A stretch of 62,900 nt of DNA, the filler included, from Hausera hauseri (Eukaryota), in NCBI GenBank assembly GCA_046269625.1. It is 11 parts of 11 records of this genome, joined end to end, with 100 filler letters (N's around TTAATTAATTAA, not from the genome) between each part and the next. Parts side by side here need not be neighbours in the genome. Positions count along the whole stretch, not along the records: positions 34,953 to 42,092 come from JBJURY010036445.1; 10 more parts are not named here. One strand, written 5' to 3'. The first letter of the stretch is position 1, and the number at the start of each line of letters is the position of its first letter. Made by a program: the position numbers and the translations under genes. Positions 9,591 to 58,340 of this stretch are shown here, piece by piece. The notes under the pieces were generated by a model. It was not told the origin of the DNA and did no database searches. It saw only the letters and a program-made list of their open reading frames with translations.

Positions 9591-9690
9591 NNNNNNNNNN
9601 NNNNNNNNNNNNNNNNNNNNNNNNNNNNNNNNNNTTAATTAATTAANNNNNNNNNNNNNNNNNNNNNNNNNNNNNNNNNNNNNNNNNNNN

Positions 9691-26277: not shown

Positions 26278-27716
26278 TTAAACCAAAACCAATTCTTTAT
26301 TTGATGACAAAAGAACCCCATCTGTAATTGTCGGGTTATTTTATTGTAGTGATATTCTTGGGGCGCCAATTCCCTTAACTTCCTTTCAGTATGTTTAGGA
26401 CGCTTAGAACGACAATTTTTGGCAAGTGACAGAAAAATCGAAATTAATAAAATGAGAACAAACGTTGATAGTATATCCAATTGATACTATCGGTAATGTG
26501 GTTAGTTCCATTGGTGCTTGTGCTGTAACTAGAATCGTGCTTTCGTCGTCTATGTTTTTGTATGTGTGCGATTTTGCACGAATTTCGTCTAAGGTGCGCA
26601 TTATCAGTATTCAGATTTGTTTATCTTCTGCGTGTACTTGTATTGTATAACCAGATTTTAATCTTAACAAATTGCGCTGTCTGGTAAGTGTTTTTAAGTA
26701 ATGTGACAATGTGATTATTGTATGTTGTTCGGCAGTTTATATGTATATCGTAATTTAGTTTTTTTTCTACAAAGAACACAATTTTGAATCTATACGCCGA
26801 ATACTTAATAGGTATACTCTGTAATTTTCTTTTAGGCACACTGCCTTGGGTAATGGGTTTGGTAATGGTACTGACTCGAGTGGTCGGATTTTTGGTTGTC
26901 GTTTCTATTGGAATCCTCCATATTTTATTCTTCGAATAATAGGTTCGTAACTGTATGCTCGGTTTGTTTGGCCTCACTTCATATAAGTCACATTTTATTT
27001 TGAATTCCTGGTTTACTGGAAGTTTATAACATAGATGTTGCACGCCCGCACGGACGGAACAGTATTCTATTTTTGGAGTTTGTCCGTTTACCGCTTCGAA
27101 GACAATACTAATTTCTTGATTAAATTTTAATCCTGTTCGAGCATCTACTTGGATGCATTGTTTTTCTTATTTATTGAGATACTTTTTATATTTTCATCTA
27201 ATAACCGTATATCTGGGTCGGTGGATTGTAGAATCGCCGGAGCCAAGGGGGAATAACCAACTGAAGTTGTGGGTTTACTTCTATATAGACTTCTGCTGAG
27301 TCCGACAAATACATGCAATAAGTAAGGACGTAGGTATGAATAAAATCTATGTTGCAGCACTGGGTATAATCTCCGAGTTCAAAATCACAGTTGTCCTCTT
27401 TTTTGTTGCTACATCCTATAGGACAATTTGAAATCTTCCAAAGTCGTGATGCAGTCCTCAAGCTTTAAATCCAGCACACAGAGTCTGGCAAAAAGTAATG
27501 AATCATCATTGATTGTAACAATTTAGTGTCTTTTCAATTTTGGATCTCTTCCGCTGTTGGTTTATTTTCCTTTACTACGTTTTTTTGTTTTAATCCACTC
27601 TTCCAAATTCCATATACGTTCTCTCGCGTAATTTGGTCGTACCATCATTGGGTTCGTGTTTTTGGTATGTAAGCAGCAATTAATAATAACACTAAGACTA
27701 TCTGCACATACGACAT
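26278..27716 (-). pseudogene. Family B ORF-D: type I membrane protein (signal peptide, Cys-rich region, FN3-like domain, TM, tail) downstream of integrase
   Basis: ATG at 27716 gives MSYVQIVLVLLLIAAYIP. TM is STFVLILLISIFLSLA followed by KNCRSKR. Colinear with 38920-39650. Confidence 0.65.
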
Positions 27717-27752
27717 CGGTCTAGCGATAATTGAAGAAGTTTGTATCTCACG

Positions 27753-30628
27753 TCAACGTAAATTGTAACGCTTATTAGGTCGTATCTTCGTCTTAACGAA
27801 TCTTTGTACTGATGCGACTTCTTCCTTACCATTTCTGTTGATGTACACTGTAGTTGGCGTAACTTTAGTAACCTCATAAGGTCCCCTGCCTGTACGAGTC
27901 AGTTTTAATGACGTACCTTTTTTGCTAATGGGTAATGTACATAAACCCAATTTCCTTGTTCCAAAATCGTGCGGTTTTGCTTTCTTAACATTTTGCTTCT
28001 TAAACTATTCTTGATATTTTCGAGATAATTCTTTGGCGATTTTACAGCACTTTTGCAATCGTGTCTGTAGTACTTCTGCAAAATTTTGCTCTAAATCTTC
28101 GGGACTGATCACGTATGGCGTCATTCCTAAATCTGTGAGCAACACAGCTTCACGACCATACATTATGAAAAATAGTGTAAATCCTGTTGCCGGATGTGGA
28201 GTAGTATTGATTGCAAATTGAGTTCCTTCTAGAAATTCGTCCCAATATTTTTGGTCTTTGGCTACTACCGTGGATAATATACGTATAACAAATGCGTCCA
28301 TTCGTTCAACCATTCCATTCCACTGCGAGTGATGGGCGGTGGTAGTTAACTGTTCGATTTCAAATATTTTGGTAATCTTTTCGAATAGTTTACTTATTCA
28401 CCGGAGGTCCATATCGGCAAATGATTCTTCTTACTATAGCTTCGGACAAGGTTTCTGCCTTTCGATCAATTAACGCTATCAAATCGACAAAATGATTTAG
28501 TCGATCAATACAAGTTAAGATATGTTTATTGTTTTTGTGGGTCGTAGGAAGTGGTCCTACGATACGCAATGACATGGCTTGCATAGGTCTGTCGGACACA
28601 TAGATTGGTTTTAATTCCGTCATGTAATTCTTTGTCTTTTTCTGTTTAGTTGCACATACTTCGCAAGCATTTACCCAGTTTTTCACATCAATATAGATAC
28701 TGGGCCAAAAGTATTTATGCAATATTCTTTCTAATGTTTTCTTCCAGGACATGTGTCCGGCCAAATATGAATCATGTTCCTACTTTAAGACTTCAATTCA
28801 ATAAGACTTCAATAACTATCAGCTCTTTTCCCTTTCGCTCATAATATAGAAGGTCTTCGAGACCCTTGTTGGCGATATATTATTTCTTTGAGCTTACTTT
28901 TCTTCCTTACAGTTATTGCACTTATTTTGGTTTTCAATATTGATAGTGCATCGGCATCTACATGTTTATTCCCTGGCTTATACTGGAATTCTATATTATA
29001 TCTAGAGATTTCTTCAATACATCTGTTTAGTTTGCATGTCGGCTTATTTGCTTGTCCTTTTAGAGTCGTGAAGACCTTGTGGCCAGTAACAATTATAATT
29101 TTCTGCCCGTACACGTAAATGTTGAAGTATCGAAGCGCTTCCTTTACGGCTAGAGTTTCTAATTCAGTAACGGAATAGTTTTACTTTGCCTTTTTCAAGG
29201 AACGTCCTCCATTAGGAATTGGGTCTTCTAATTCTTCATCTTCTCTTTCCTGCACGAAATCATATCCAACATATTCTTTACTGGCATCTGTCTTAATTAT
29301 CAATGGTAAATTGAAGTCTGGATATCACAGAACTGGTTCGCTTTTTAAAATTCTCTTCATTTTGTAGAAATTCTCTTGCTCGATGTCTGTCCATTTCCAT
29401 TTAATTCCCTTTTTAAGTTGTCGATATAAAGGTGCATTTATTTTCGAGTTATCCGAAACATAACTGGAATAACACCCACATAAGCCTAGCCAGTGTCTCA
29501 ACTCTTTCTGATTTTGTGGATTATGCAGTCTGATATTTTGTTCAGTAATGATTTATCTGGTTTTGATCCTCCTCCAACTACATGGCCAAGGTAGGATACT
29601 TCATTTTGAGCCAATTTACATTTCTTTGGGTTAAATTTTAATCCTGCTTGTTCTAGTCTCATCAGTGTGTGCTAAATATCTTTAAAATGTTCTTCTACCG
29701 TCTTTGACTCGATCATCACATCATCTAAGTATGCAAAAGCATGAGATAGTCCCATTAGCATTTTGTTCATCATTCTTGTACAAATGGCTGGTCCGGTAGT
29801 AATACCAAATGGCACGACATTAAACTCATAGACGCTACCGTGCATTTTGAACGCTGTTTTATATCGATCATCGTCTTCGATTTCTACTTGCCAGTATCCA
29901 GATTGTATATCCAGAGTATTAAACCATTTTTCTCCGGAAAGCCTATTCAAAGCTTCTTTTACGGACGGCAGCGGAAAAGAATCTTTCATCATAATGTTAT
30001 TCAGTGTTCTGTAGTCAATACAGAATCTTTTTTTTGTATTACCTTTCTTTTTAACCATGAGGATTGGTGAGTAACAAGATCTATAACTGTGTTTAATTAT
30101 ATTGGCTTTAAGCATACGTTTGACCTCTTTTCTTATCTGGAGTCTTAATGAATGTGGAGGAGGATTCCATTTCGGCATATTTTGATCTTCAAGATATATC
30201 TCTTCATTTGAACTAGGCTTCTTTTTAAGCGGAATGGTCAATTTTAATGCTTTTGCTCTACCGATATCTTCGTCATCTTTAGCAATGATTGATTTATAGC
30301 GACACAATAATTCATAGAATCGACAGTAATATTTGAGAGTAAACTTGGTTTTGAAATGAGGTGGAAATTCTGCATACTTGTAAGGCTTTTCTTTAATAGT
30401 TATAGACGACACTTTATAAGTATTACATAAAATAGTATAAAAATGAATCTTGATGGGAGTTGGTGCATTATTTGCTATTCTGATCGGTACATGATCGGAG
30501 TGTACTCTCGTCAATATGTTACTGAGTGTTATATTTGGATTTGATGTCTCTCTTGGTTCAAAATATACCGGCTGGTCGTCATCACGTTGAATTTGTGCGT
30601 AGACTATCATTTCGGTTCTCCGTGGAAT
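27753..30628 (-). mobile_element. Family B pol: RT, RNase H, integrase with GPY/F module (Ty3/gypsy order), degraded
   Basis: RFCIDYRTLN, DIQSGYWQ, PFG, YLDD; TDAS, YSVTELE; H..GH...CEVC; NGMVER; RGPYEV. Confidence 0.95.
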
Positions 30629-30728: not shown

Positions 30729-32154
30729 ATGAGCGACAACCCTAGCAAGATACCAAGACTCTTGACGGCCAGCCAACGTTCTAAATACTTACAAGAAATT
30801 TATTTGAAGTTGAGATGGGAACACGAATGGACCCCTAAGAACCCTATACACAATTTACGCAGCTCTATTAACCCTGAACAGATAGATGGAAAGTACAGAG
30901 GAAATATAAAACCTTATTCCCCGATTCGAACTATTCAGCCAATGGACGAACACAATCTCCAGATTACAGTACCAAAACAGAAGACTGAGAATAAGATCAG
31001 ATCACAAACGACTAAAGAAAAGGAGACATTGCAAGAAACATCAAATGCCCCACAAGAACAGAAAAAAGAAAAAAGACCAGAAACGATAAATAAAAAGATG
31101 AGATTAGAGGAGAAACCCCAACCTAGAAAAACATTATCTATATACAATTACCTATTTAAAAGACGGAAAACGGACGAGGGACAAGAAATAGACAACAATC
31201 AAAATCAACCAAGCACTTCTCAAAGTATAGAACCGTCAAAGAAGGGAATTAAGAATCCCTTAATAACAGAAATCAATACCTTGATAGGCAAAAGAAGCAA
31301 AGAAGATGTACACTATAAAACAAATCAAGAATTTCCTAGGATGTTGGTAGCCACCGAATACTATAGCAAGAAAATAATAAAGGAAGCAATGTTCTTCGTA
31401 AAACTTGCCCCAGCCAGAGAGGTATTCGAAAACACATGTGTGGGAAAATGCTAAAATCGGAACTTATTTTACCTCAATATTTCGTTCCAAGGAAACAAGG
31501 AAAATAGTAGTTCCCGTGGATAAACAAATCCGAGTGTTATTGAAGAAACAATATCAAAAGTATAAGATAGAAGGAAATATTCCTGACCTAGACAAAGATG
31601 TGATGGCAGATTGGACCCTAATCCAAGTAGATTGCGACCCACGTAAAAGCTCCATTAACCCAAAACAAAAAGTGATTCATGGCTACTTATACCAGGATAA
31701 AGACGGTCTCGTATTCGAGCCTATTGAATTAATCATCCAGGTGGATTTGGATAGAGAAGACTGGAACAAGGAAGACAGCGAATGCCCCGTTTGCGAGGCA
31801 AACCTGAGACAAGGTTATGTGGTTCTAGATAATCGAAATTGCCGTCATAAATATTGTCGAGATTGTTTAGAGAAGTGGACACTCGACAATGGGAAAACGA
31901 CATGCCCAGTATGCCGGGCCGAGGCCACAGATTTAAAGTACTATTCGGATGGAAGTTACACACGGGTTGTTCGAATAAAACCCTATCATAGTTATGATCT
32001 GGAAACAAACGTAGTAATCCGTCGAGATCAACAAAACTCCCCTTCAGACTTAACAGAGAGAATGAATCAATTGAGAGATCCTAGAACGTTGGGCGTCACC
32101 TCTTCTGACGCAATAGGCTCCTCCGAGGATGCCGCTCAGGGAGGAGAAATGTGA
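30729..32154 (+). pseudogene. Family B ORF-E C-terminal part: RING-HC (C3HC4) finger protein with one frameshift
   Basis: CPVC...CRHKYCRDC...CPVCR at 31783-31917. Homologous to 40680-42031. Confidence 0.85.
32138..32149 (+). promoter_or_regulatory. Polypurine tract of family B (second copy at 42061-42072)
   Basis: Both copies read CGAGGATGCCGCTC, then a purine run, then TGT. Confidence 0.8.
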
Positions 32155-32784
32155 GAGAATGACAAATGGAATATCGAATACCGAATAGTCGATAATTGTA
32201 AATAATTGGTGTCGGAAAGTGCAGCGGTTATAATTTTAGAATTTTGTACATATTAGAATAATGTGCGCTATTTATCAAATTTTACGATAAATCTACAATT
32301 TTGAAAATTGACTTTTAACCAAATTGGACGACTAATAAACATGTGGAATTAGAATTAAATTGAGAATAAATATTATGTTGAGATAAAGCGAGATAAAGCC
32401 GAGTATATAAGCTGAAGTCAAAATTAGAAGTGGAAGAAACATTTTTTTTGCGACTTAGGTTCGCACAGCTTACTATTTTTCTTGCGAATATAATTGAGTC
32501 AGTAATTAGTGAACAACTTAGCGTTGGTCGAAACCGAATCGATTGAACGATATTTAATTCGAGTTCGAAAGAGAAAACTAAACTTGTGACATTAACGTTG
32601 TGATCATTGGAGATCTTGTGTATCGGTGTATATTAATAAAGGTTGATTTTATTTCGTTGTTAAAATCATATAGGTTTTCTTCATCGGCCCTTAAGGCTGA
32701 TTTGCACTTCCCTAAGGTCAAAATCAGACTCAACTTAAATAGTTAAGACTAGAAGTTTTAACCTAAGGCAATTGATTTTTTACA
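32150..32784 (+). repeat. Family B 3' LTR (right boundary approximate)
   Basis: Starts TG right after the PPT; TATATAA near 32404; AATAAA near 32635; candidate TTACA end near 32784. Confidence 0.55.
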
Positions 32785-32895
32785 CGCAGTACCTGCAATA
32801 CAGTTAAATTTTTTTTAATTTATTAAGGCACAAGCAGATTACTCGAGATCGAGTAATCCTAACCTGCTCGAAGAGCGACTCTAATTCGAAGTAAA

Positions 32896-33129
32896 TATTG
32901 TTATAGTGGGAGAAGGTAAGGGCCACCCCAAACTGTAACAGTTATATTATTGCGGCTGACCGATCGAAAATATTGGATAATGATGATAAGAGTGTAGCAG
33001 GTAGTGTTATCAGTACATCGGATGTTGAAACCAGAAGCACAAACGAGGGCAAGGAATCATCATCAAGATCAACTAATCGTTGTGTTATAGTTCCGGGTGG
33101 GCCCTATACGTCTCCCAACTATAACAATA
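32896..33129. mobile_element. MITE-like element with imperfect TIRs of about 40 bp
   Basis: TATTGTTATAGTGGGAGAAGGTAAGGGCCACCC at the left end vs reverse complement TATTGTTATAGTTGGGAGACGTATAGGGCCCACCC at the right end; TA at both ends. Confidence 0.7.
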
Positions 33130-36100
33130 AATTACACTACAATTTATGATAACGATTACTATGCAAGTTCGGTTTAACGTTCTCGATCTGATTAATGTGT
33201 CTAGTCTTTTTTGCAATGCTTGTATTGAATGCGAAATTGGTAACTGTGTTTCAAACACTTCTAATCCTAATTATTTAAGATTTTACTGTGGAATCTAGAC
33301 TTAATGTAGTGAAATCCCACTTAATGGGCGATGGAAACTATAGATAAATTTACAATAAAAATTTATTATACAAACAAGTAACCAAATTTTGGACGACTTA
33401 CAATGTCGTAATCAGAATATCAATTTCAATGGAATTATATCTCGTATTTTATTTCGGAATCTCGCTTTGATAACACTGAATTCTGCAACGATTGACTTAT
33501 TTGGAATCACACTTCACCGCAATATGACTGCAATACTGATTAAGTAACTACGGTCCGCAATCTGTTCAACTTCAACACCTAATCGTCTGAAACTGTTCAC
33601 TCAACAATATTCAACTGATGTTCGTTAGTTCACTACTTATATCTGCACTGAACGTAGGTGACTTCCTCTGAGTTTGATAAATATTTATTTGTATTTGTCC
33701 GAATTTCGCATGATTTCCGTTGAATAAATTAGTATTTCCGCTGATTAATTTCCGTTGATTATATTAACTGATTAATTCTCATAAAATAAACAGTGTCATA
33801 CAATAAATACATTTTAAGTGCATTTGTCCATTTCTTATGTACATCATCCTCTATTTTCTTATGATGTTCTGTTTTCACGTGACTAGAATTTAAATTTTGG
33901 CCCCAAGCAAAAGAAAAACTTTGTCATAACCCTAATATATGTGTGTGAGTGTGTGTGTACTAATTGATTGGATATTATACAATCAAATGAATAAAACCGA
34001 ATGGAGTTGACAGTTCGTCTTCTTATGACGACATAAATGACTAAATTGGTCCTTTCATCCAACAACATCCTAAAAGTGAATAATGATATCAAATACCCAA
34101 TTTAATTAAAATTTAGTAATGTATTACGTTGGATTTTACAAATCTTTTACATTTGTTTTTGTTGGACAGCGCATTTCCAATAATTTCAAATAGAATTTTC
34201 ATTAACTAAACATTTATGTCTGGAAAAATTTCCAGTAATAAAAATTATTATGCAAAAAAATATTTCTTTGAAAACCACTTCAATTTTAATATCACATCAT
34301 ATTTCATTAATATAATTGAGAGGATTGCCACTTTCTTGGTGATGCTTGAGCATTTTACTCAGATCGTCAGTATTCTTATCCATTATTTAATTAATGGTAC
34401 TAATTATTCAGAAAATGTGAATTATGTTATTTCCATTAGATTTTTGTTATTAATTCGTAATTCTCACGTATAGGATTAATATATCACACCGCGTTAGAAT
34501 AAAGCAGATCAAGGTATTATATTTCATTAATGAATTTTTGTACAAAACATTTGTTGAAATTTGGTATGGGACGATGTTAATAATAAATAAAGTATTTAAG
34601 CCAATAATGCTAACTGATTGGTGGTATATTGTTGGTGTGTCTTACCCTGCGTTTTTCAAGTACCTACAGTGAAGCTCCGTTAGTATGAATTTCTTTCAAA
34701 TTCTCCGAGTTTCGAATTAACCGAAATCTTCCTTTGGGAGCCAAATCCCGTGCAGTAAATTCTGATTTTATTATAGAACACGTTTGCATACCATTTAACT
34801 TACAATTGATTGATTTATACACTTAATATGATGTTGCAAGTCCCTTCTTGTCNNNNNNNNNNNNNNNNNNNNNNNNNNNNNNNNNNNNNNNNNNNNTTAA
34901 TTAATTAANNNNNNNNNNNNNNNNNNNNNNNNNNNNNNNNNNNNNNNNNNNNTAAGAACTATAGGTGAATCTAATAATCAACAAGTAATCAAGGCCAGGA
35001 AGAAGTATGAAGAAAATTGGCAGCAAATGGAAGTTTATCATAGATTAAGAGAACCAAAAACAGAGTACAAAAAGGCTATAGCGCCTAGGAATACTAACAT
35101 GGCCAGAAAGGAAAACCTAAATCCAGTAGCAAAGCCGACTACGTCTTCAAGTGTAGACTTGGATGCAGATACCGAGGTCGAACCTCAAAATAATGACAAA
35201 ACAACATATGAGGTTGAGAGCAAATTCATTGGTCCACTGATACTCAAGATAACCAAATATAGAGGTAAAGGCCCTTCACTTAGGAGAAGATCAGGACTCC
35301 TTCACGATCCCCTATTAAAAAGGATGTAGAAAAGGAGGATGACTTTATCATCACTTTAAGAAATGAATGATGTATGTCCATTACCCCGTAGTGAAGAGGA
35401 ATCAAAAGAGAAAAAACCTGTTAAGTTTGGGAAGATTAGAAAATCTTGGAAAAATGCAAACGAACTAACCAAAATAAGAGACGCACTGAACGATCCCGGA
35501 AGGTCACAGGAGAGCCTACAAAAACTTCAGCAGATGAGCAAACAGTTGGATATCTCTGGGAAGGAACAACAATTCATAGAGAAGATATATAAAAAACTTA
35601 AACCCGGCCCTCACAAGGAGAAAGAAAACATACCTCACGAACTCCAAGAAACGCGGCAAGACTTGATAGGAAGTTGGAAAATAAAATAGAACTGTGGACA
35701 AAGAGTGGGATCGATTTTACGAAAATATGGTGGAATAGAAATGAGCCGTTTCTTGATCAGGTTAATCAAGCGCAAGGATTATTAGACACACTAAAGGACA
35801 ATCCAAAACTAAAACGCGTAAGACGTTATTTAGAAGGATTGATATATGAGATCGAATATGCGATAATTTCTTATCTCCATAACAAGCCAGTATATGAACT
35901 AACTAATGCCGACTTAGAGATATTGGGTATAGACCCAATCGATATTCCCCCTCTAATAGCATTGTGCAGCCTGATAAAGAATAGCCCTCGAAAATACCCA
36001 GATTTAAAAAACCGGATTGAAAGAGAAAACAAAATACAAATCAAAATTAACGACTGTAAAATCGGTGTAGTTCACCCTGGAAGAGCAGAAGCACAGAGAA

Positions 36101-37564
36101 TAATACGCGCTTATCTTCTTGAATTAGACGAGTATAAAGACGAATTCAACTACATGAAACATATCATAGAATTTGTATGAGGGCCAGATCACGAACTAAA
36201 AGAAGCTGTTGAGACATTAAACGAAATAATCTACACTAAACCGGCAATATCCAAACAATTAAAGAAGTGGATAGACTTTCTACCTTCAATAGCAGGGATA
36301 ATAAACGAAAGACTGAGGGAATTCGCCGTGGTTGAACCTATAATAAGAAACCAATTGGAGGAAATGTTACTGGATATCGGTACGATGGAAGAGGAAGCAA
36401 AATTACGAATCAAATTCGAATCATTCCGAGAACTTGAATTTATGAGAAACGACACTAACAGAGATATATAATATGATAGAAGAAAAGGAATTCTACAGAA
36501 AAAGAAGCAAGCTAAGTGATCTTCAGCGAAGTTTAGCAAATATCCGTAGGGTAGGAATACAGAGCCTAATGCAGAAACCGTTGAAGGAAATCTCAGTACA
36601 GGAAACAGAAACGTTAGAAGTATGTAATGATCACCGGATTGCTCTAGCGCAAACAATACAATATTTACAGAATCCAGCAGAATGGACGCCAGGTTTCGAC
36701 CTACATTGCCACACCGAACTAACGGAAATTAGGAAGGACCTTCAGTTGACGAGCGATGAAGCCAAGTTCATAGGCAGGCTAATAGACGCAATAGATCCGG
36801 ACGTCGAAGTATTAAATCAAACACACAAATTAATTCTACTATTAACAGAAATGGCAGAAATTGACGAAATAGTAGCCAGACGACTAACAGATCGAATACG
36901 TTTGATAAAAGAAACACGGTTACGCTCCGAGAAAAGACAGCGCGAGCTAAGCGAATTACTGAGAGAAACAGAAGTTTATAAGAACAAGTATTACCTTACG
37001 GAATCTGAAATGAACGACAAAACGGAATTTATACAGAGATGGCAAAGAGACAAAATCGCAAAAATGATTAGTTGTCGGGAGAAAGCTCTGATACAACCAG
37101 AAGAAATGTACCGATTAATAACATTGATACAGCAATCGTGCGGAAATGGAGACGGATTTAGGATATCCGTAATGAAAACATTACAACCGCAGATAAGAAA
37201 ATTACGCAAAAGAGTCCAGGTCAGACATGCGGCACTATTGAACTACGAGTTACCTGACGCAAATAATGATGCCGAGTGGGATGAATATCTCCTAGGTTTA
37301 ACCGAGCGAAGTCAAAGAACCCCAATACAAATTTATGAGTCACCTACTGGTGCCCAGAAGATGAAATTTAACGTGCAAATACTACTTGATCCTGCGCTAG
37401 CTGAAAGGGAATTGAGCGGTGCATTGAAAACAAACATAAATGAAGATAAGTTAAAAAAATTGATTCCAACTCTGACTAAGCTATACAGTGAAAATACCGC
37501 ATACAGTGCACTACCCAAGCTCCTAATAAGAGAATACGCTAAACTATTGAAAAATAAACCGAAA

Positions 37565-37790
37565 GCGGAAATTAAAGTGAAAGAATCATCCGAATGGATG
37601 AACAATGAGGAATTTGAATGTACTACCTATACCACCGTTGGGAATACAAGACAACGGATAATGGATAAAAATGGTAGGAAAGGAGTTAATTACCGACTTT
37701 ATTTCAGAGGCAGGATATTAAACGAGCTAGAATCCTTAATAAACGTAGGAATTGTACCTTCCGAGGAAAATCGAATAATAGCAATAATTG
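37565..37790 (+). other. Ubiquitin-like domain within family B ORF-A (second copy about 46965-47190, minus)
   Basis: IKVK...TTVGNTRQRIMDKNG..VNYRLYFRGRILNELESLINVGI and TSVGEIKQWIVQNSG..ENYQLYFRGRILDEPELLIDVRI align with ubiquitin [37 protein letters not shown]. No terminal GG. Confidence 0.75.
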
Positions 37791-39702
37791 TCAGTGAACA
37801 GACCAAAGACGAAGCCATAAGAAAGGCACATACAGAATCTTGCGTTGGAAAAATCATGGGGATTCAGGATGCCGCAATGTATTTCGAATACTTACAAACT
37901 GATGATGACAACCCGCAACACGATAAAACTTAGTCTCTCTAAGTGAAACCTTACTACCGATGAAGTCTAAACGACCGGTCGGAAAACCGAGAAAAAGAAA
38001 AGAAATTAACTATAATGCAGACCTAATTAGGAAATTTAGACAACTATAGGTACCAAGCCCGAGTTGAGCTAATGAAAGGCCTAATTAGGATAGTCAATTA
38101 TACCGGACTCCAAGGCGACATATTATCCGAGAAGAAAAGACTAATATATAATATAGCCCGGACAATGAAGATTTCACGATTTAAATTATCTAAAAGCATC
38201 CTCCCTGAAGAAACAGTAATTTATAGAATTATGATAGACAATACGATGGAAGAATTAGGGAAAGTCTTGATATATTTAGCAATCAGAACTTAACCACTCC
38301 GGGAAAACGAATTTGACAAGACAATTGGGTTAGCTAGAAAAGCTGCAAGAAGGGTACCTAAAGAAATAAAATGGACTAAATTGTTCGAAAAAGGGGAAAA
38401 TACAAAAGGAACTAATAAGTTAGAGGATATGATACGAAATATCTTCCCGAACAAAGGAAACGAACCCAATTGGTTAATCAACTTGCTGACGATAATGATG
38501 CTAGTAAAGCAGATAAGAACAGTTACTATATACGACTGCGACAAATTTAATGTGGATTCGAACGTTTAACCACTACCGCGTACCACCCCAAATTTAATGG
38601 AATGGTCGAACAAATGAACGCAACAGTCATTCGAATATTATCAACGGTAGTGGCCAACGACCAAAGGGATTTTGGCGAATTCCTAGAAGGGACACAGTTC
38701 GCGATCAATACGACCCCACATTCAACAATAAAATTTACACCGTTCTTTATGATGTATGAACGAGAGGCAATCTTACCCACAGATTTAGGTATGATACCGT
38801 AAGAAAAGAACCTCGAGGATCTAGAGCAAAATTTTGCCGAAATCTTATAGACAAGTTTGCAGAAGTGTCGGGAAGTTGCAAAAACATTATCATTCGAATA
38901 CCAGATACATTTTAAAAAATAATTTATACACTTATATGAAGTTCAACCGAACCAGTCGAGTATTTACCTAGGAATTTATCAATTGAAAAATCAAATTTGG
39001 GAAACTCCACCGGAAATGACGACAAGCGGAATTACGACTACAAAAATAAATATAACTATTTCTACATGCATCAAAATCGTCTAAAAGAGTGGATTGTCTC
39101 AAAAGGATTTAGAATGATTCCTATAAAGTATTGGACACAACAACATGAAATAACTTTCGTTGTGGAGGAAGCGCTTAATTACGACGTAGAAATAAGCTAC
39201 CGAACATTACATAATAACCAAAAATTAACACAGGCTAAAGGTCGCTATCAAATCAAATGTACCTAATTGAAACCCAAAACAGACTACATAATACAAGTAA
39301 GTGCAGAGAACAGACAAGATAGAACATTTACGGTACGGACTCTAAACGAGATTGTCTTAACAAAACCACTAACTAACGAGGAAACGGAAGAGGAAACTAC
39401 GATTACCGTCAAAACGAAAAAACTAACTAAATGTACAACTTTTTAATAATATCAATTATTGGATCGTCAACATTTGCTCTCATAACTTTTGTTGCGTTTT
39501 TCCGATTTATTGCCAAAAACTGCCGTAATAAGAGTCATAAAATCACCGAGAGGGAATTAAGGGTAATGGTACCGCAGGATGGAATCAATGATAGAGTAAC
39601 TTGACAATTACAGGTCGGGTTATTCCACCATCAAACAAAGAATTAATTCAGATTTAGAACAATACTTTGTTATAGGATTGACCCTTATTTTTTGTTTTCA
39701 GA

Positions 39703-42031
39703 ATGGTAAGTACGGATAGCCGAATTAGAATCGAGGAGTATTTACGGAGACAAGCTACAGTGTTTATTCCAAACACAAAATCTATTTCTAAAAGGATAAC
39801 TGAAGCATTGCAGGCAAAAATCTATGCCGAATTTTCGTAAACCAACGAAATTCCCAATGATCTAAAGGGTATTACAGAGGAAAATCACACGGTTTTCCTT
39901 TAGACAATGCGCGAAGATAACCAAACTAAAGCATATTCCCTAAGGGAATTAATCCGAAACCGACTAGCCAAAATTCAAGACATATACATCCACCTAGCCG
40001 ACGGAGAAATATATTATAGAGTAGGAAACCAAACCTGAAACTCCAATGAAGGGCATCAATATCGATTTAGCACATTTAAAATAAACGGAAAGGGTTTAGA
40101 ACGTATTGACTACGGTCTAAAATTTAGAGTATCAGCCCTTCCTGTTAAACTTATGTTCGAAGTGACCTACACAGAGGGTTGTAATCTACGCTTGCCAGCT
40201 CTAGAATTTAAACAATTTCCAACTGAGGAAAAGATGAACATCGTAAGTCATATAGACTAGTCCAAGATGGTCGTAACGTAAGAATCACCGCGATAAATTG
40301 TGGCAAAGGAAATGATGGATATGGAAGTATCTATTAGAGAAAGGGATGGGGTCGAAATATACTCCACAATCATAAACCCCCGGAAGTATGCTCAAGAATC
40401 GTACGCAGAAGTAACTGGTTTAAGAGAGCAGCTTATAAGAGGAAAAGACAGTAGACAAGTCCGTTCGGAGTTGGACCATTGTCTTTACGGTTGTATGTTG
40501 GCAGGATATAACGTGCAACGATCAGTCGAGTTACTAAAAATATCCGATGCAAATATTGCCGGAATTAGGAAAATAGCCACCCACCCAATAGTCCAAGAAC
40601 GAATGGAGGAAACCATACAAGGAAGAAATCGACCGACCGCTCCAGAAGCCATCTTCACGTTAATGATCGAAGCAATGAACAACGACTCGAGTAGAATTCA
40701 GACTTAACGGCTAGCCAACGCTACAAATATTTACAAGAAATTTATAAATCACTAAAATGGAAACATGAATGGGCCCCTGGAAACCCCATATACAATTTGC
40801 GCAGTTCTCTGAAGCCCGAACAAATAGATACCAAATATAGAAGAAACATCAAACCTTACTCTCCGATCAGAACTGTCCAGTCGATAGGCAGCCACAATCT
40901 TACAATCACCATACAAAACCAGAGGAGAATATAACGGAATTACAAACAATCGGGAAAGGAAACAAAACGCCCAATAAAACGTCAAAGTCTCTAGAAGAAC
41001 ACAAGAATTGAAGCCGAAAACAATAGTAAAGAAACAGAAAATAGAAGAAAAGCCCCAGTCCAAAAAACGCCATCTATTTATAACTACTTGTTTAAGAAAA
41101 GAAAAGATGAGAATCTAAAAGATGAAAACCAACAAATTGAACCAAGCACCTCTCAGAAGGCCAAATCCGTAAAAAATCAGTGAACCTATGATAACTGAAG
41201 TCAATGTCATTAGGGAAGAAGATCGAAGAAAATGTCCACCATAAAACAACTCAGGACTCATCAAGAATGTTGATAGCCACAGAATATTGTATCAAGAAAA
41301 TGATCAAAGAAGCTGTTTTATATCAAAGTTGCCCGGCCAGAGAAGTTTTCGTAAATACATATGTTTGGGAAAACTCTAAGTTAGGAAATTACCTTACCTC
41401 AGCCTTTCGCTCAAAAAGGACAGGAAAAATTATAGTTCCGGTAGATAAAAAAATCCGGATATTAATAAATGAACAATATCAAAGATACCGAATGGAAGGA
41501 AAAATTCAAGATTTGAACCAAGACCTTATGGCGGATTGGACCTTAATACAAGTAAGCTGTGACCCACGGAAAAGTTCCATTAACCCTAAGCAGAAGGTAA
41601 TTCATGGATACCTTTATCACGATGCGCATGGCCTTATATTCGAGCCCATTGAACTGACAATCCAGGTTGATTTAGATAGAGATGATTGGGACAAGGAGGA
41701 TAATGAATGCAATGTGTGCGATGCTAACCTGAGACAAGGTTATGTGGTATTGGATAATAAAATTTGCCGCCACAAGTATTGTCGGGATTGTTTTGAGAAG
41801 TGGACACTCGACAATGGAAAAGCGACATTTCCAGTGTGCCGAGCAGAGGCTACGGATCTGAAATATTATTCTGACGGAAATTACACCCGGGTTGTTCGCA
41901 TTAAGCCCTACCATAGTTATGATCTAGAAGCCAACCCCTCACGAAGTCAAAACCAACCGGATTCCCAAACCAACTTACGAGAAAGGATGGAACGGTTGAG
42001 GCGACCAAAGACGCTAGGCGCAACTTCTTGA
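39703..42031 (+). pseudogene. Family B ORF-E full extent: about 780-codon protein ending in RING-HC
   Basis: ATG at 39703, right after a polypyrimidine/CAG acceptor, is in frame (through several stops) with ORF 40300-40707 and continues via frameshifts to the RING at 41708-41842, where the 7th ligand is C>F. Confidence 0.65.
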
Positions 42032-42399
42032 CGCAATAGGCTCCTTCGAGGATGCCGCTCAGAAAGAAGAGATGTAACAGTGCTGGACTATANNNNNNNN
42101 NNNNNNNNNNNNNNNNNNNNNNNNNNNNNNNNNNNNTTAATTAATTAANNNNNNNNNNNNNNNNNNNNNNNNNNNNNNNNNNNNNNNNNNNNCGAATTAA
42201 CCAATCAGCATGCGAGACGCTTGTGATTGGTCAATTGGTGCGTGGGTGGACCCCCCCCCCTCCCCCCTTGTTCCAGAAACGCCTTTTTCCCCCTACTTAG
42301 GTAATATCAACATAGGCCTAGCCAATGACTTAATTCTTTTTCGTTCTCAGGCTCCATACAGTCCGAAATTTTGTTCAACAACGATTTGTCTGGCCTTGA

Positions 42400-43800
42400 T
42401 TTTCATTCTCCAACTATATGGCCAAGGTACGATACAGCGTTCAGAGCCCACTTACACTTTTTTGATTTAGTTTTAACCCAGCTTGTTATAATTTCATGAG
42501 TGTGTCTTCGATGTCCTTCAGATGCTCCTTTTCGGTTTTTGATGCAATTATTACATCATCTAAGTACGCAAATGCATGTTCCAGTCCCTTTTGCATTTTA
42601 TTCATCATGCTGGTAAAAATGGCTGATTTTGTAGTAATTCCAAATGGCATAACGTTAAATTCATACACAAATCGTGGGTTTTAAACTCCGTTTTATAATG
42701 GCCTTCATCTTAGATTTCTACCTACCAGTATCCGGATTGTAAGACCAGAGTGGTAAACCTTTTTGTTCCTGAGAGCCTCTAAAGCCTCTTTCACAGATGG
42801 TAAGTGGAAAGAATATTTCATCACAATAGTATTCAGTGCTCTGTAATCGACACAAAATTGATATTTCGTGGTACCTATTTTGACCATAAAAATGGGTGAA
42901 TACTAAGATCTAAAGATCGGCCTTATTATATCGGCCTTGTGCATTCGTTCCACTTCCTTAGTTATCTCGGGTCTCAAGGAATGTGGTGGTGGATACCATT
43001 TTGGCATCTTCTGCTCTTCCAGATCAATTTCGTCATAGGAACCAGGCTTCTTCTTAAGTGGTATAGTCAGCTTTAACGCTTTTGCTCGACCAATGTCTTC
43101 TTCGTCCATTGCAATAATGGATTTATATCGACATAATAATTCATAAAATTGACAATAGACTTCTGGTGAGAATTTAGTATCTACGTGAGGTAGAAATGCG
43201 GAATATTTATATAGTTTCGCTTCAACCGTTATTGCTGATACTTTATAAATGTGTCTCAAAGTAGTGTTGCGTATAATTTTATTAGAGTTGGCGCACTGTT
43301 CGCTAATCTAGCTGGTATACGTCATCTTGACAGATCTGTGCAAATATTAACAATTTCGTTCTGGGCGGAATCTAGGCTGTATCTAATTTCTAACCGGAAT
43401 CCATAATTCTCCGGGTTTTCTTTCTTTGTTAATTTTTGTCCCTTTTATCGGTCCAAGTTGGATTAGCTTCGCGGTGTTTAAGTCTACCGCTATGCTTGGG
43501 AGACGCCTTAGTACATCTCACCCTAATACTACGTCATCCGTTAAGTGTTCCATTATAGAAAATTCATGTTGGAATGTTTGTCCCATTATACTGATATTGG
43601 GATTCCATTTAAAGTTCGGTCTCGATTCTTGTCCAAAAGCTCCTATGCTTCCGGGATCGGTTGCTAGCGGTAAACGTAGTTGATGTCGTAATACTTTTGG
43701 TATTGATCCGTTTTTATGAACGATTTCTCTGAGCTGGTATATATTAGCGCATAAACTTCCCAATCATCAATACTGATTTTGGCGAAGGGTCTACATTATT
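42400..43800 (-). mobile_element. Family B pol 5' part: degenerate protease and RT
   Basis: RPFAKISIDDWEVYALI(Y)T(S)SEKSFI is a mutated DTG site; DDVVLG; FCVDYRALN, MPFG, YLDD. Highly similar to 29672-30420. Confidence 0.9.
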
Positions 43801-44209
43801 TTATCCTAGGCTGTTTAACGCTGGATATCTTGTGCCCATTTATACTAATTTCTGGTATGCTACTAGTATCTTCGGCTATCTGTCTCGATTCGATAATGGG
43901 ATATAATCCGCTATTTACGCAGTTTCCATCGTCCCGCTCCTGCGTACAGATTAATAATTCTCTGTTGTTTGAACAATAGAAAGAGTGAATTCGTGGATTA
44001 TCCCAAACTGACGATTTGGTTTGTACATTCCGCGAAATCCACGGGGAGTATATCACTTTGCGGTCATCTACTGATCGGTGACGTTACTCGAATTTTTCTC
44101 TATTTCCGTACATTTTCCGTAATGCATCGCATTGCTGTGTACCTTCATAAGGGTTTTTATAGTTCAAGGGTTTCATATAGTTTTACGACTTGTAAGAGTT
44201 AATTGATCG

Positions 44210-46270
44210 TTAGTTGCAGTCCTCGTATAATGGCGCCGAAGGGGGCAGCATAGGCAGAGGCGATTTTAAGACATAGTACTCCTTATGCTTGCATATTTTG
44301 GAGACCACGTCTCCTCCCTTAGGCTCATCATCATCTGAATTATTTCTTCGTAATTTCATATCCCTTTGTCCTATGAAGAATACGGGTTTTCTTTTTCGTT
44401 TTCGATTATAATAGACAACATGTCTCTCAACATCGCTTTTCCATCTGCTCTCTTCATACGTCTTCAAAAATTTTCAAAGGGCTTTATAATCGCTGACAAA
44501 ATTTTACACGAAAATCCAGTTAAGGCAAATATTTCATAGCCATTTATAACGGATTGAATTACTGACTTAATGAGTTGTACTAAAATATAGATAACTAAAA
44601 ATTCAGATGCAGCTTGTCCTCAAATTAAAAATCTTCCCCAGATCTTGTATAATATCTCCGTGGTGATTCTTTGATAATGATTGGAACCAAGTAGAAATTC
44701 CCATTTTGCTTGATAGATAGTACTATCTATTACCGTTGACATAGCTGTATTCAATTCATGTGTACGCTGACGATAGAAAGCTGGAAACTGTCTAAAAGCC
44801 TCAATTTCCTTTGGTCTGTAAATTCCTTTGCTCGCGGTATCAGAAAACTTATCATCCGTTATACCTTTTAACAAATTTGTCCCTGTTAGTTTATTAGGCG
44901 TGGCTATTATTCTTCCATTTGGCAGGCTTAGCCAATCTATCTCACTTTTACTAAACATAGGTTCGCCTAAACCTGATTTACATTCCTTCAAAATCGTTGG
45001 CTGTGTTGAATTTTCCAATAAGACTCTCGTAAGTGGCATGGCTAACCGAGGTACGTTCTGGTATAGAACTAGCAATACTTGCATACAACGTTTCTCTTCT
45101 ACGTTTATGGATACATCCCGTCTTTTGCATTCGTGTGTTAACAGAACTTCTCCGGTGACTCTTCCGAAAATACCTTCTTTTATGGGGATCACAGGCACTG
45201 CTAGATCCGAGTTGGCACATATTAAGGCCACTATGGTCCTCATAATTTCTGTGTCCAATTTACAGTTATTTGCGATTATTTTGTGACATAATTCTGCTAT
45301 TTCGGCTTGTCCTTTATAATAAAAAGAATCGTCTCTATTTTTCAAGTAATCTTCTATTCTTACCTCTTGTGTTTCCAATGAATAAGTAGTTATTGCAGCT
45401 TCTGCTACGAAAAATGCTTCATAATTGGTGGCACACATCACTACGTTACATCAGGGGAGCATTTGTTTCTTAATAAACTTTAACCCATGATCATCGGAGA
45501 TTAATATCGTTGGTGTGGAGTGTTCGGTCACATCCTTCCTTGACCGAGCATTATTATCTATCGTATCCACATATCTTTTCCCCGTGGTTTCGTTAAAACT
45601 AATCTCTTTTATTTTAATGAAATTACAGCCACTCGCAGGAAGTGGAATCCAATTAATTATTGAATTGCGGAAAGTACAGGCACCATCTTGAATATGACAC
45701 TTCTGGTTTTCGGTATATACTTTCGTAACACTATGAAACATCACCTTTTGATTTCTCATTTCTGTCTCATAAAAATCGACTACTCCTCCTCCTTCTTTTC
45801 CTCTTCCAGTATCGTATTCACCTCCCTTACAGTACCCGGTTTGAATATGTAGCTTTTTAATTGCTACTTTATATACCCTAATTATTCTTCCCTACTCCAC
45901 ATCGTCCCACCTCAATCTTCCGGTTTCTTTAACTGGTTTACACTATTGTCTGTCTAAATCCATGGTAATTAGCGGAGTAGTTGGTTTTATTATTGATGAA
46001 TGTCCGTGCATGTTCCCACAATGAAAAATGCTTCAAGATCTGCGTAACATGCATTCTATCCCGTCTACCGCAATCAACTTGCGTTGATGATACAAAAAGT
46101 ACTTTTTCTCAACGGTTACTAACTTGTGAGGTCTGGCGTCCTCGCACATTTCTAAATCCATCAGAGAATATTTCTGACCTAGCTTGAATTTATCACAGCC
46201 GTACACCGTGATTTCTCCCAGTTGTCTTATTAGCACCATGAGCGTTATTAATTTAATCATCCAATTCGGT
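44210..46270 (-). pseudogene. Family B envelope glycoprotein, chuvirus/Jingchuvirales-like (class III fusogen type)
   Basis: Signal then VYGC..YSLMDLEMC; C....FHCGNMHGHSS; C...ETG; GYCKGGEY; C...DGAC; C.LDTEI; G.FGRVTGEVLLTHEC; CMQVL.V; PLTRVL; SKGIY; W.RFL.*G...LVIYILVQLIKSVIQSVINGY TM region. The Cys spacing and motifs match chuvirus-type glycoproteins as I recall them. Confidence 0.8.
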
Positions 46271-49200
46271 TCGCTGTCTCGTGCTGAGTTGGGTGGCATT
46301 AATTCCTTACAACATCTTTAATTCTAATGGACCGCCTACTTTCGCCTTCATCATCAATTAGTTTGGACCAATTAACTTCTATAGGTATTTTCCTGGCCAA
46401 GCCAATAGTCCTATTAAATTCATTTCCCCGCGAGGAATTTGTTTTGATTGCCAAGTACAATACAACTTTTCTTAATTCTTTTTTAGTATTTTCCACCATG
46501 GTTTTCGCAATTACAACCTCATCAGGCAAGGTACTTTTATTCGTCTTGAACCGGGATGTTCTGATTATCCTCGCAGCATCGTATATCGCTCTTTCCTTTT
46601 CATCCAACATGTCACTTCTTGGTCCCGAATAATTCACTATTTTTATAAGATTTTTTATTAACTTGGTTAATTCTTCATTGTCGGAGTTAATTGTTGGCAT
46701 TGACATTTGCCTCAGTTCTCGAATTAGATCTGCGTTATGGTCGGTTTCGTCTCTTACGTTTCTTTGTCTTCCAATTGATCATTTTTGTTTCGCCGGAGTC
46801 GGAATTGCTTCTCTAAGCGGCACTAAATTCCTGTCATATTGTTCTTTATCTTCCTCATTCTAAATGTAGTCAAAATACATGGTAGGGTACCGAATTCCCA
46901 TAATGCGTCCTACACAATGTTCAGCTCGTGCTTTCCCTTATCGTTTTGTCTTTCGTCTGTTCATCAGTAATTATGGCCAGTATTCTATTGGATTCCTCCG
47001 GAATAATTCTAACGTCTATTAGTAGTTCGGGTTCATCCAGTATTCTGCCTCGGAAGTATAACTGATAGTTTTCTTCGTCTTTACCACTATTTTGTACTAT
47101 CCATTGTTTTATTTCTCCCACTGAGGTTACCGTTGTACACTCAATTTCCCTCTCGTACATCCACTCGGCTGATATTTTTACCTTAATTATCGTTTCGGGT
47201 TTAGCCCTCAAGATTTTAGCGTACTTCCTTATAAATAGTTTTGGCACGGTACTATAAACGGTATTTTCACTTGATAATTTAGTTAAGGTAGGGATTAGTT
47301 GTCTTAGTTTGCTTTCAGTTATATTTAAGTTAATTTGTTCAATTAAATCTTTCTCAGCCAGTGCAGGACCGAGCAGCATATCCACATTAAATTGTCAGTT
47401 CGATGGAAGTTGGATAGGCGTTTTAGGATTCTGGTTGTACACATCCTCCAAATAGGTGTGCCATCCTACGTCGCCTGTAACGTCTGGGAGTTCATAGTCC
47501 AATAATGTCGTGCTCGCGCATTTCACATTTTCACGGATCTTGTTTAACCTCGGCTGGACTTCTTTCATTAAGGTAGTTTGGAACTCCACTGCGTTTCCAC
47601 ACTCAATTTGGAACATTTTTAATGGTGGTCCTAATTCGTCTGCAGGAATGAGCCCTTTTCTTTCATAATTCGTTAATTCAGTAGTCACATCTGCTAACCA
47701 CCTCTGTGGAAATTCATTTTATTCGTTATCTCCGATCGAGTAAACTTACATTTATTCCTATAGATCTCTAGTTCATTGTCTAATTCATCTAACTTTGTTG
47801 CTCTCCGCTTCGTATGGATACGATGTTCTTCTATATCTCTAACTTGGGTTGTCAATTTTCGTGCTTTGTCATCATTTATTTCTGACATTGCTGATAACAG
47901 CGATATTAGTCCTTGCATTTCATTTAGAGTCTTAGAATCTGGGTCTACTTCGTCAATCAGTTTCCTTCGAACTTAGCCTCGTCCGATGTGAGTTGACTGT
48001 CTTTCTTTATTTCTCTCAATTCAGCATGGCAATTTTGGTCTGTTCCTAATGTCCATTCAGATGGACGATGTAGAAATTTTAGTATTTCTTCTAACGCATT
48101 CCGATGGTTCGGACAGATATCCAGCGTTGTTAAATCGTATATCGATATTTCATTTGTGGGTTTCGTCGTCAAATATTGTGTGCCTTCTAGGCGAACGCGT
48201 TTTAGTCCTGTAACGAAATGGGACATCATTTCCCGTTTCGTTGACAACTCTATCTCTTCGATCATCGCGTATAATCCTTCCACGAATGTTATTTCCTGAT
48301 TTTTGCTCATAAAATTTAATCTTAACAATGCGTTGAATTCAACCCGAAGGGTTGCCTCTGTTTTCAGAGCATCTAGATATCAGAGTATTTCTTTCAACCG
48401 TTGTTTGGATATTGGTTCACATATAGAATATTTCCTCAAGTGATACTTCGTTAAGTATGCTAATCTATACAACAATTCAATCCATTCCTTGTGATGGTTG
48501 TCTATTACCGGTTTCGCGTATATTACATTTTCTAGTTTTTTATAGGCATTGTTTAGTTTGTCGTCTGGACCTTCGATATATTCCATTATTTCTATAACGT
48601 AATTAACTTCATTCTTGTACTCATCCAGTTCCAGAATACACGTTTTCGTTATATTTTGCGTTTCTGGATTTTCTATTTTCGTTATTTTGTTCTTACATCT
48701 GTAAATCTCGGAGCGTCTTTTATCCTTTAAGACTATACGAATTCCTACATCCTCATATTCCTTAGGCGCGTTGAACGCGATTTTGCACATTTCCATTACG
48801 AGAGGAATATCTACCGGTTCTATTCCCAGTATTTTGAATTTGTTTTCATCCAGTTCGCTTACTGGTTTATTTTTAAGGTAATAGATTATTGTATCCTCTA
48901 TTTCTTTTATTAAATTATCTAGGTTACGCTTTGTTATCTTCTGTTTTGGTTCCGCGGCTAACATCTTTAGTAATTCCTGGGCAGTTGTCACTTTACTTCA
49001 GATTTTAATCTCCTGATTATTCAATATCTCGGTGAAGTCGATTTCCATTTTTATTCATGAGCTCAGTTTTGTTCGCCATTCTTCAATTGATTTCTCAATA
49101 GCTTCTTCTGATTATTCTAGTTCTTCGTCCCTTCTAGCATTTTCCTCAATGTACTTTTTAAATGCATTACACATTTTCTCGGCAAACTGTTGTTCCTTCC

Positions 49201-49616
49201 CGGATACATCTACTTGAGTTTTTATACTTTCCAGTTCCTCTAAGTTACGACGTAAAGTCTCCAGGTCAGTCAATAGTGTCCTAATCTATTTTAATTTATC
49301 CGCATTCTTCCAAGATTTCCTGATCCTCCATAATTTCCCGTCGAGTTTCTCAATTCGTTCCGTTCGGTCAATTTCGCCTTCGCTTATGGGTTGCCGACAT
49401 ATCTCGTTTATTTCATTGTTTCCGTCTCCTGCTTTTATAGTTATACTTGCATCATCTGTTATTTCTCTAAGCTCCACATCAGGAGTGCTAAAACTTGAGA
49501 CGTCCTCCACATCGATATCTCTGGGATTGATCCGCCCTGAATTTTCCTTTTTGAAACTAACTTTTATTAACTAGATTCTGTGAATTTTACAAAAAAAGGA
49601 ATTTGGAAAAAATATA

Positions 49617-49687
49617 CTCCCGACCGGGAATCCAACCCGGACCTTCCACGTGACAAGCGGAGATACTTACCACTATACTATCGAGGA
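49617..49687 (-). tRNA. tRNA-Asp(GTC)-like pseudogene, copy 1
   Basis: TCCTCGATAGTATAGTGGTAAGTATCTCCGCTTGTCACGTGGA... The T-loop is TTGGATT, the acceptor 3' strand is one G short, and TTTTTT follows downstream. Confidence 0.8.
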
Positions 49688-49852
49688 CTGATTAAATTAT
49701 TTTAAATTTCCATGTTAATTTAACCACATCATTCCTGCGTCAATGGCTCGACTCCACACACTTCCAATCCGTTCTTATGTCAGCGTATAGAACTAACTTT
49801 TATTAACTGGATTCTGGGCACTTTACAAAGAAAGGAATTTGGAAAAAATATA

Positions 49853-49923
49853 CTCCCGACCGGGAATCCAACTGGGGCCTTCCACATGACATGCGGAGAT
49901 ACTTACCACTATACTATCGAGGA
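49853..49923 (-). tRNA. tRNA-Asp(GTC)-like pseudogene, copy 2
   Basis: Tandem copy with a 236-bp period and additional mismatches. Confidence 0.75.
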
Positions 49924-50153
49924 CTGGCCTTTTTGTTTCCTTTTTATCGATGGGCTACGGCCTCTATTCTTCGTTATTTTAACCACTAACGGTGCTATAT
50001 ATTTACTCTTAATTTTTTCGGAAGCGGCAGTCTCTTCTCTTGTTAGTTTTTCGNNNNNNNNNNNNNNNNNNNNNNNNNNNNNNNNNNNNNNNNNNNNTTA
50101 ATTAATTAANNNNNNNNNNNNNNNNNNNNNNNNNNNNNNNNNNNNNNNNNNNN

Positions 50154-50492
50154 GACTTTTTTAAGTTAAAGAATAATAATCTATATGGTAAGACCGTAGA
50201 AAATTTATTGAAAAGGTCAATTTTAAGAATGTGCAATAATGCCAAAAAACTTGTTACTTACACAAGTAAGGCACAGTTTAAGAAAAGTATCATTATAGCC
50301 GATGACCTTGTCGCTGTTCTCCTCGATAAAGACATAGTTACTTTAGACAGACCCTCATACATTGGTCAAGCAGTACTTGATCTGTCAAAGTTAAGGATGT
50401 ATGAGTTGAATTATATAGTGTTGGAGAATTACAGACAACAGTTTAGTTGCGAAATTAATGTAATTGCTGATAACACGGACAGTTTTTTCTAA
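50154..50492 (+). mobile_element. Family-B-type DNA polymerase (pPolB) fragment, Maverick/Polinton/adintovirus-like
   Basis: FFKLKNNNLYGKTVEN (KxxxNxxYGK motif), P.YIGQAVLDLSKLRMY and D(N)TDSF (DTDS motif). Confidence 0.85.
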
Positions 50493-51213
50493 AGTGCCGT
50501 GGTGTCTGTCAAAAGGCACCAAACAGACAAGATTCGCTGGCAACCTGACAACATATAACGAACTGGTGGGTTTGTTCAAAGAGCCCTTGAGTACGCAGGT
50601 GGCTCGTAGAACTACACGACGTGAGAAAGTCGACTTGAAATGCCTACAGTGCATAACGATACTACCAACCATGGAGAAATCAGCGCACGATGAGGTGAAA
50701 TTCGTCATTGCGTTCTATTTGTCAAGCAACTATTTTTTTAATGTTCTTGTTATTAACAATTCCTTTTTCCTTTTTCTCTCTTATCTTTTTGTTCTCAACA
50801 TGTCTGGAACAACGTCACCCTTTTAAACTTAGCCCACCGTTGCGGTAGTCCTTTACATCCCATTTACCATGATAGTTCAGATTTCTGCCTATATACGTGC
50901 AACAATACTCTTGAGTAACAATAGAATCACAGTGTGACCGACTACTCAACCGTCCATCACTTCGCCATCCACTAGGGCCTGTGACACCCCTCTCGTTTTC
51001 CTTTTTCATAAATAACTCGCAAATACGGACGCACAACATAACATACCATATAGATACACTGTACTTACACAAATTTATAAAACATTTTACTACCTTTTCA
51101 GACTTTTACTTAACCCTTAATAATATACCTCTCGTTAATGTCGATGTCCGAAACTTTTTTCTTCTCGAACCCCACACCTCACTATTCATGTACATTTGCG
51201 CATACGTGGTGGA

Positions 51214-57729: not shown

Positions 57730-58340
57730 TGCACAAAAATGCCACTTAGGGTGCAAATTTTAAAATCAGAGATATTATACAGATAACGTTATTTGCACAT
57801 ATCGTGCAAAATTCAGACATAATGCACGCAGATGCATTCCTGGTTGCACTTTGAAAAACAAATCTCATCATGCAAATGACGAACACACAAACCTCCCTTC
57901 TAACAGCCGCCCTGTTTTTCCTTTTTCAAAGAACTAATTTCGCCGCCAGTACTCATGGCAGAGTCTGGCAAAGGCAACTTCTATACTACTATCTGCCGAC
58001 ACACTTATTTTGCAGTTTTTTCACTAAAGGCTTCGATAACCACACCAACAACTCAATCCATAGATTTCCTTATCGACACAAGCGCTGTGGTTTCTCTGCT
58101 ACCACTCACTTTCCATGTACAAAATTCACCATTCAAAGCTAAATTGTTATTTACGGCTTCGGGAGAACCGCTAGACATTTCTGGTGTATCTAAATTGTCT
58201 TTCACCTTACCAAACTTCCAATCCATGTTTCATTGGACGTTTACTGTCGCTAACGTCCGTACTGCAATCCTAGGTTCGGATTTCTTATCGCACTATAATC
58301 TTTTAGTTGATTGCAAACAACAATGTCTGAAACGTAACAC
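57730..58340 (+). mobile_element. Family A gag end plus protease fragment
   Basis: Knuckle remnants, DFLIDTSA and AILGSDFL; very similar to 52300-52720. Confidence 0.9.

Follow-up and report, generated by a model that had tools for sequence, protein, structure and literature searches.

A ubiquitin-like domain (UBL) without a di-glycine appears to be carried in one long, Burro-like Gag-Env-Pol polyprotein of Hausera hauseri, where, on a reading that we favour slightly, it would offer host proteins of the ubiquitin system a fixed surface to dock on. The host of this domain is a high-copy, envelope-bearing Ty3/gypsy family. The window, that is, the whole stretch of 62,900 nucleotides that was analysed, consists of 11 contigs of 4-8 kb each joined through an artificial 100-base linker; a palindromic 100-base repeat was considered as a biological feature and rejected, being the assembly linker itself. 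The family occupies the following contigs:

26278-30628, minus strand: contig S6, assigned to the same family by tblastn overlap
30729-34852, plus strand: contig S7, assigned to the same family by tblastn overlap
34953-42092, plus strand: contig S8, carrying UBL copy 1
42193-50053, minus strand: contig S9, carrying UBL copy 2

Both copies of the UBL-bearing element in the window (S8 and S9) are dead, with many stops and frameshifts. In one public run, 10,830 contigs align to S8 and 6,419 to S9, with the UBL covered in both, and none of the joints listed for that run (15 of 48 for S8 and 15 of 95 for S9) skips the UBL. With thousands of contigs of the family in that run and the UBL covered, the UBL is an established component of a large repeat family rather than a one-off insertion; read depth in the public run, from which the window itself may derive, does not equal copy number and was not used for ranking the parts.

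The two motif sites singled out by the first-pass annotation are both present and have diverged, with 56% identity over 80 codons:

37565..37792, plus strand: ubiquitin-like domain, copy 1, on contig S8; Pfam PF00240 at E 0.001, with shuffle and window controls and an Atlas score of 0.93
46966..47193, minus strand: ubiquitin-like domain, copy 2, on contig S9; Pfam PF00240 at E 0.0017

The beta-grasp motif pattern proposed there holds in that LYFRGRIL is invariant, but the shared stretch past this core is longer, reading RIL.E.E.LI.V.I. The profile search that had been suggested bore out the assignment in part: PF00240, the ubiquitin family, is the top Pfam family for both isolated copies (19.2 and 18.6 bits, respectively), but both scores lie under the curated cut-off of 25.4 bits, and, the two copies being related to each other, their profile matches are not independent. 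Local alignment to the ubiquitin unit gave scores of 56 and 53; with 5000 shuffles for each copy, none reached the first score and one reached the second. The UBL frames rank 1 and 2 against ubiquitin among the 258 stop-free pieces of at least 60 amino acids in the window. A feature search of the ESM Atlas with the UBL placed the ubiquitin cluster first, with 170 shared features. The matches listed in a PDB search were almost only ubiquitin-family chains, and their E-values for the single domain are weak (0.026 at best); comparably weak scores are seen among the matches listed for viral ubiquitin, ISG15 and ubiquilin-2, and UHRF1 is absent among the 60 listed. Comparison of the UBL with polyubiquitin by hhalign returned a probability of 19% at E 0.0012.

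From these comparisons, we consider it very probable that the UBL has a ubiquitin-like (beta-grasp) fold. The structure prediction that the first-pass annotation had proposed for both copies neither confirmed nor refuted this fold; two AlphaFold2 predictions on two-sequence alignments of the UBL had a mean pLDDT of 39 and produced no beta-grasp, an outcome that is uninformative rather than refuting. When the copies are forced into alignment with ubiquitin, they agree with it at 19 and 20 of 76 residues, and core positions 3, 5, 23, 30, 43, 45, 50, 56 and 61, together with Gly47, are retained or conservatively changed in both copies. In both copies, Tyr stands in place of Ile44, Arg in place of Lys48 and Ser in place of Leu8, and the exposed strand around the Ile44 position holds the longest stretch of invariant residues in the domain, 8 in all. 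Because Tyr replaces Ile44 in both copies, ordinary binding of the UBL to proteasome receptors is not to be assumed. A di-glycine after the last strand was not found in either copy, as had been reported; the UBL is therefore not a conjugatable modifier, and its earlier description as an integral type II UBL inside a retroelement ORF gains support from two diverged copies that both lack the di-glycine.

The UBL is under purifying selection. Between copies 1 and 2, pN is 0.27 and pS is 0.68, which corresponds to a dN/dS of about 0.19, a rough value with dS near saturation, and neither copy has stops across the domain. Copy-to-copy identity, 56% in the UBL, is 63% just before it, 55% after it, and 35% and 45% farther upstream; as the value for the UBL falls within the range of its neighbours, the domain does not stand out as specially constrained.

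The UBL is probably part of one polyprotein that runs into Env, in a context composed of the following parts:

34953..37564, plus strand: upstream polyprotein region on S8, apparently helical, broken; tblastn to S9 at 39-49%, weak Pfam matches only
47194..50053, minus strand: the same upstream region on S9, broken, interrupted by two tRNA-Asp copies
38027..38440, plus strand: conserved helical domain between the UBL and the env leader on S8; 51% identical to the S9 copy
46320..46730, minus strand: the same conserved domain on S9
38471..38521, plus strand: env hydrophobic leader on S8, resembling a signal peptide by eye and sharing the frame of the domain before it
44467..46263, minus strand: class III, chuvirus/gB-like envelope on S9, with leader, broken, upstream of pol
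43667..43795, minus strand: retropepsin-like remnant on S9 with a degenerate catalytic motif, recognized by eye only
42232..43307, minus strand: reverse transcriptase (RT) on S9, broken; 59% identical to the S6 RT frame
27968..30628, minus strand: sister copy on S6, with RT, RNase H and integrase; Pfam RVT_1, RT_RNaseH and Integrase_H2C2
38551..38920, plus strand: integrase core remnant on S8; 67% identical to the S6 integrase

Along S9, the parts follow one another as a long upstream region, the UBL, the conserved domain of ~130 residues, a hydrophobic leader, the envelope, the protease remnant and RT. S6 has RT in common with S9 and extends the series by RNase H, integrase and a membrane-protein-like frame, and S8, in which an internal deletion near 38550 joins the env leader to the integrase core, continues into the end of the membrane-protein-like frame and a RING frame common to S7. 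S6 bridges S9 and S8 by homology, and we infer the full element order by homology from the four diverged copies; for the env-to-pol junction there is just a single copy, and that one is broken.

S8 and S9 both start inside the upstream polyprotein frame, and the contigs S6-S9, which are without the 5' part of the element, gave no match to Gag, MATH, BIR or ankyrin in Pfam and none to CCHC knuckles by pattern. Among the segments that scored across 35300-38560, no stop or frame change is common to the S8 and S9 copies, and translation in active lineages therefore probably runs through the UBL and on to the env leader, yielding one polyprotein. What had been called ORF-A makes better sense as the Gag-side portion of a single polyprotein continuing into Env. 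The conserved domain between the UBL and env has no Bcl-2 match in Pfam, the PDB or the Atlas. The S9 frame is interrupted by two tRNA-Asp(GTC) copies on the minus strand (49615-49688 and 49851-49924), which lie 236 bases apart and whose very high depth in the public run suggests a tRNA-derived repeat or a tandem array.

Upstream of RT on S9, Pfam Monjiviricetes_fusion (PF24664) matches 44623-45450 at E 1.6e-14, and a class III env upstream of pol, as in the gB-type GAG-ENV-POL errantiviruses, is thus present on this contig. The gypsy order of RT, RNase H and integrase is found on S6, where the RT frame matches RVT_1 at E 2.7e-24, and the protease remnant seen by eye, which has no Pfam match, precedes RT on S9; the spacer between protease and RT on S9, where a dUTPase-like region sits in Burro, likewise has no Pfam match. 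A proline-rich PSAP word, which we take to resemble a retroviral late domain, occurs between env and protease in one copy only (44213-44473, minus strand).

The 3' end of the element is represented by the following features:

41195..42031, plus strand: 3' accessory frame on S8 with a C3HC4-type RING, one Cys altered; Pfam E 4.6e-05
31402..32154, plus strand: second copy of the RING frame, on S7; Pfam zf-RING_2 at E 1.8e-09, above the cut-off
42061..42074 (also 32138-32151), plus strand: 12-base purine tract followed by TG, read from the sequence as a likely polypurine tract and 3' LTR start

The RING frames of S8 and S7 are 77% identical with a dN/dS of about 0.06, a sign of strong selection, and their N-terminal part has no family match. 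Both end at the 12-base purine tract and TG; because this is a likely polypurine tract, the RING frame probably lies inside the element. A second LTR copy was not found in the window. The broken frame after integrase (26280-27752, minus strand, and 38940-39601, plus strand) resembles a type I membrane protein, without Pfam support; it comprises a hydrophobic leader, a cysteine-rich part, beta-rich repeats that by eye resemble fibronectin type III and a transmembrane stretch. Between the membrane-protein-like and RING frames lies ~1 kb of broken coding sequence with no family match (39682-40704, plus strand).

Elsewhere in the window, a 966-codon stop-free Xrn1 exoribonuclease frame (15877-18777, minus strand), perhaps one large exon, perhaps a retrocopy, shares its contig with an ankyrin fragment near 14662-15246. 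A second gypsy family, with DUF7041 gag-like, RT, RNase H and integrase regions, spans 4985-14561 and 50154-58340 (contigs S2, S3 and S10), and no envelope or UBL was seen in it. A NOMO-like or carboxypeptidase-regulatory-like repeat fragment at 4052-4609 (minus strand) is probably a piece of a host gene.

A homologous-protein search yielded no relatives, and phmmer on 1.84 billion representatives gave 2 matches, a 150-aa unnamed piece that corresponds to the region upstream of the UBL and a polyubiquitin. Scans of viral contigs and metagenomes produced no confirmed locus; the metagenome motif scan returned 39 loci, 0/39 of which were homologous by tblastn at E 0.01. Neither these searches for relatives nor the PDB matches, nearly all of them ubiquitin variants, singled out a nearest cellular donor of the UBL. 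Our literature search found no functional study of a retrotransposon UBL, although Grohme 2018 and Lee 2026 may say more on the domain or the 3' RING, and no split UBL-RING system of this kind.

If the UBL is a docking surface, its mode of action might be as follows. The env leader would enter the ER, and the UBL, forming the tail of the Gag-side precursor, would remain on the cytosolic side; this orientation is suggested by its placement about 225 codons ahead of the leader. There, the domain would be neither conjugated nor clipped as ubiquitin would be, and its Tyr-centred patch may bind a host E2, a deubiquitinase or a degradation adaptor. Such binding could adjust how the precursor is turned over or processed, or dampen host responses, and the UBL might act alongside the family's own RING gene. 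A precedent for E2 binding is the UBL of UHRF1; on the account given in PMC6242706, an aromatic residue occupies its Ile44 position, and it assists the RING of UHRF1 by binding the backside of the E2.

The UBL could instead be real but serve a very long polyprotein only as a structural spacer or as an aid to folding, lacking any partner in the ubiquitin system, which we regard as rather unlikely. Ubiquitin fusions improve folding and expression, which counts for such a role, as do the replacement of Ile44, Lys48 and Leu8 by Tyr, Arg and Ser in both copies and a level of conservation no higher than that of the flanks. Yet the exposed strand at the Ile44 position is where the domain keeps its longest stretch of invariant residues, and a mere spacer also sits poorly with a RING gene kept under strong selection and with the Burro cargo, described as rich in ubiquitin and apoptosis domains (PMC6431247). 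A more elaborate arrangement would have the UBL and the element's own RING act in trans as a split UHRF1-like ligase, in which the UBL holds the E2 backside and the RING activates transfer. The aromatic residue at the Ile44 position, as reported for UHRF1 (PMC6242706), the probable location of the RING within the element and the occurrence of both the UBL and the RING on S8 are consistent with this arrangement, whereas known UBL-RING cooperation takes place in one chain, the frames here are separate and far apart, and the 60 PDB matches listed do not include UHRF1. We consider such a ligase improbable, and we hold to the same low expectation the proposal that the UBL, at the cytosolic end of the Gag-Env precursor, binds a host E2 which the separately encoded 3' RING protein activates, so that the retrotransposon directs ubiquitination at its own assembly site.

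Pestivirus ubiquitin insertions are cleaved by host deubiquitinases to process the polyprotein, and the UBL of the present family also sits in a polyprotein that needs processing; the lack of Gly-Gly in either copy and the identity to ubiquitin at 19-20 of 76 residues nevertheless leave a cleaved insert of this kind very improbable. We also doubt, strongly but less so, that the resemblance to ubiquitin reflects chance or another beta-rich fold. Pfam scores under the cut-off, models at pLDDT 39 without the beta-grasp helix and the hhalign probability of 19% could be taken in that sense; against this, ubiquitin ranked top in four different comparisons, the hydrophobic core is kept, and a UBL has been published in the same slot of similar elements (PMC6431247).

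The present family adds one more, distantly related member to the Burro-like giant retroelements, and its UBL has been kept under selection between lineages with nearly saturated silent sites. Should the UBL, as the docking surface that we slightly favour, bind host ubiquitin enzymes, or should it work with the RING, this would be a case of a retrotransposon that directs host ubiquitination, in the manner of large DNA viruses. Such a function, if true, would bear on the role in stem-cell survival reported for Burro1, whose RING-BIR cargo is said to protect stem cells (cited in PMC13465017).

Known systems resemble the family to different degrees. The UBL of UHRF1, as described in PMC6242706, is likewise integral and associated with a RING, and its Ile44 position is taken by an aromatic residue; unlike in this element, its UBL and RING reside in one chain, and nothing in the sequence comparisons points to UHRF1 as the donor. 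Troyka LTR retrotransposons, gypsy-related elements of aquatic animals, were rejected as a counterpart, since the account in PMC12440569 gives them no envelope and 1.5-7.7 kb inside.

The layout with a UBL before env is already published for the giant planarian 'Burro' elements, whose internal length is near 25 kb, and the family described here is a further one of that kind. A UBL can fairly be called a non-standard domain of LTR retroelements, as the first-pass annotation stated, but it is not new, given the Ubi2/SUMO-like domain described in the same slot of Burro/GYPSM1. According to the description by Arkhipova and Yushenova (PMC6431247), planarian Burro/GYPSM1 has one polyprotein of about 4,900 residues in the order Gag, MATH, Ubi2/SUMO-like domain (PF11976), BCL-2-like domain, in-frame env related to mononegavirus fusion proteins, protease, dUTPase-like region, RT, RNase H and integrase; PMC8532177 shows BURRO1 expression and, in its accessible part, adds no domain data. 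Judged by the published description, our family is like Burro1-4/GYPSM1 in placing the UBL in the Gag-side polyprotein, one domain before env, in having an env akin to mononegavirus fusion proteins, with protease, RT, RNase H and integrase after it, and, as in Burro, in its very high copy number, decayed copies and RING cargo. It differs in that the UBL matches PF00240 rather than PF11976, that BCL-2 is without a match and the conserved domain occupies its slot, that the RING, unlike the RING-BIR of Burro, is not accompanied by a BIR on these contigs and stops at the likely polypurine tract, and that integrase is followed by an extra membrane-protein-like frame. Taking these likenesses and differences together, we think it quite probable that the element is of Burro type; membership in Burro is likely, though unproven.

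GAG-ENV-POL elements with a gB-type env were described in flatworms, nematodes and bryozoans by Chary and Hayashi (PMC13524379), who list intact elements; in what is accessible of that paper, ubiquitin is mentioned in neither the text nor the supplements. Our family is like the Platyhelminthes GAG-ENV-POL errantiviruses reported there (Smed_errantivirus_1-6) in having env before Pol, and, by eye, the N-terminal cysteine pattern and short motifs of its env fit the Schmidtea 'C1a' rows of the same paper.
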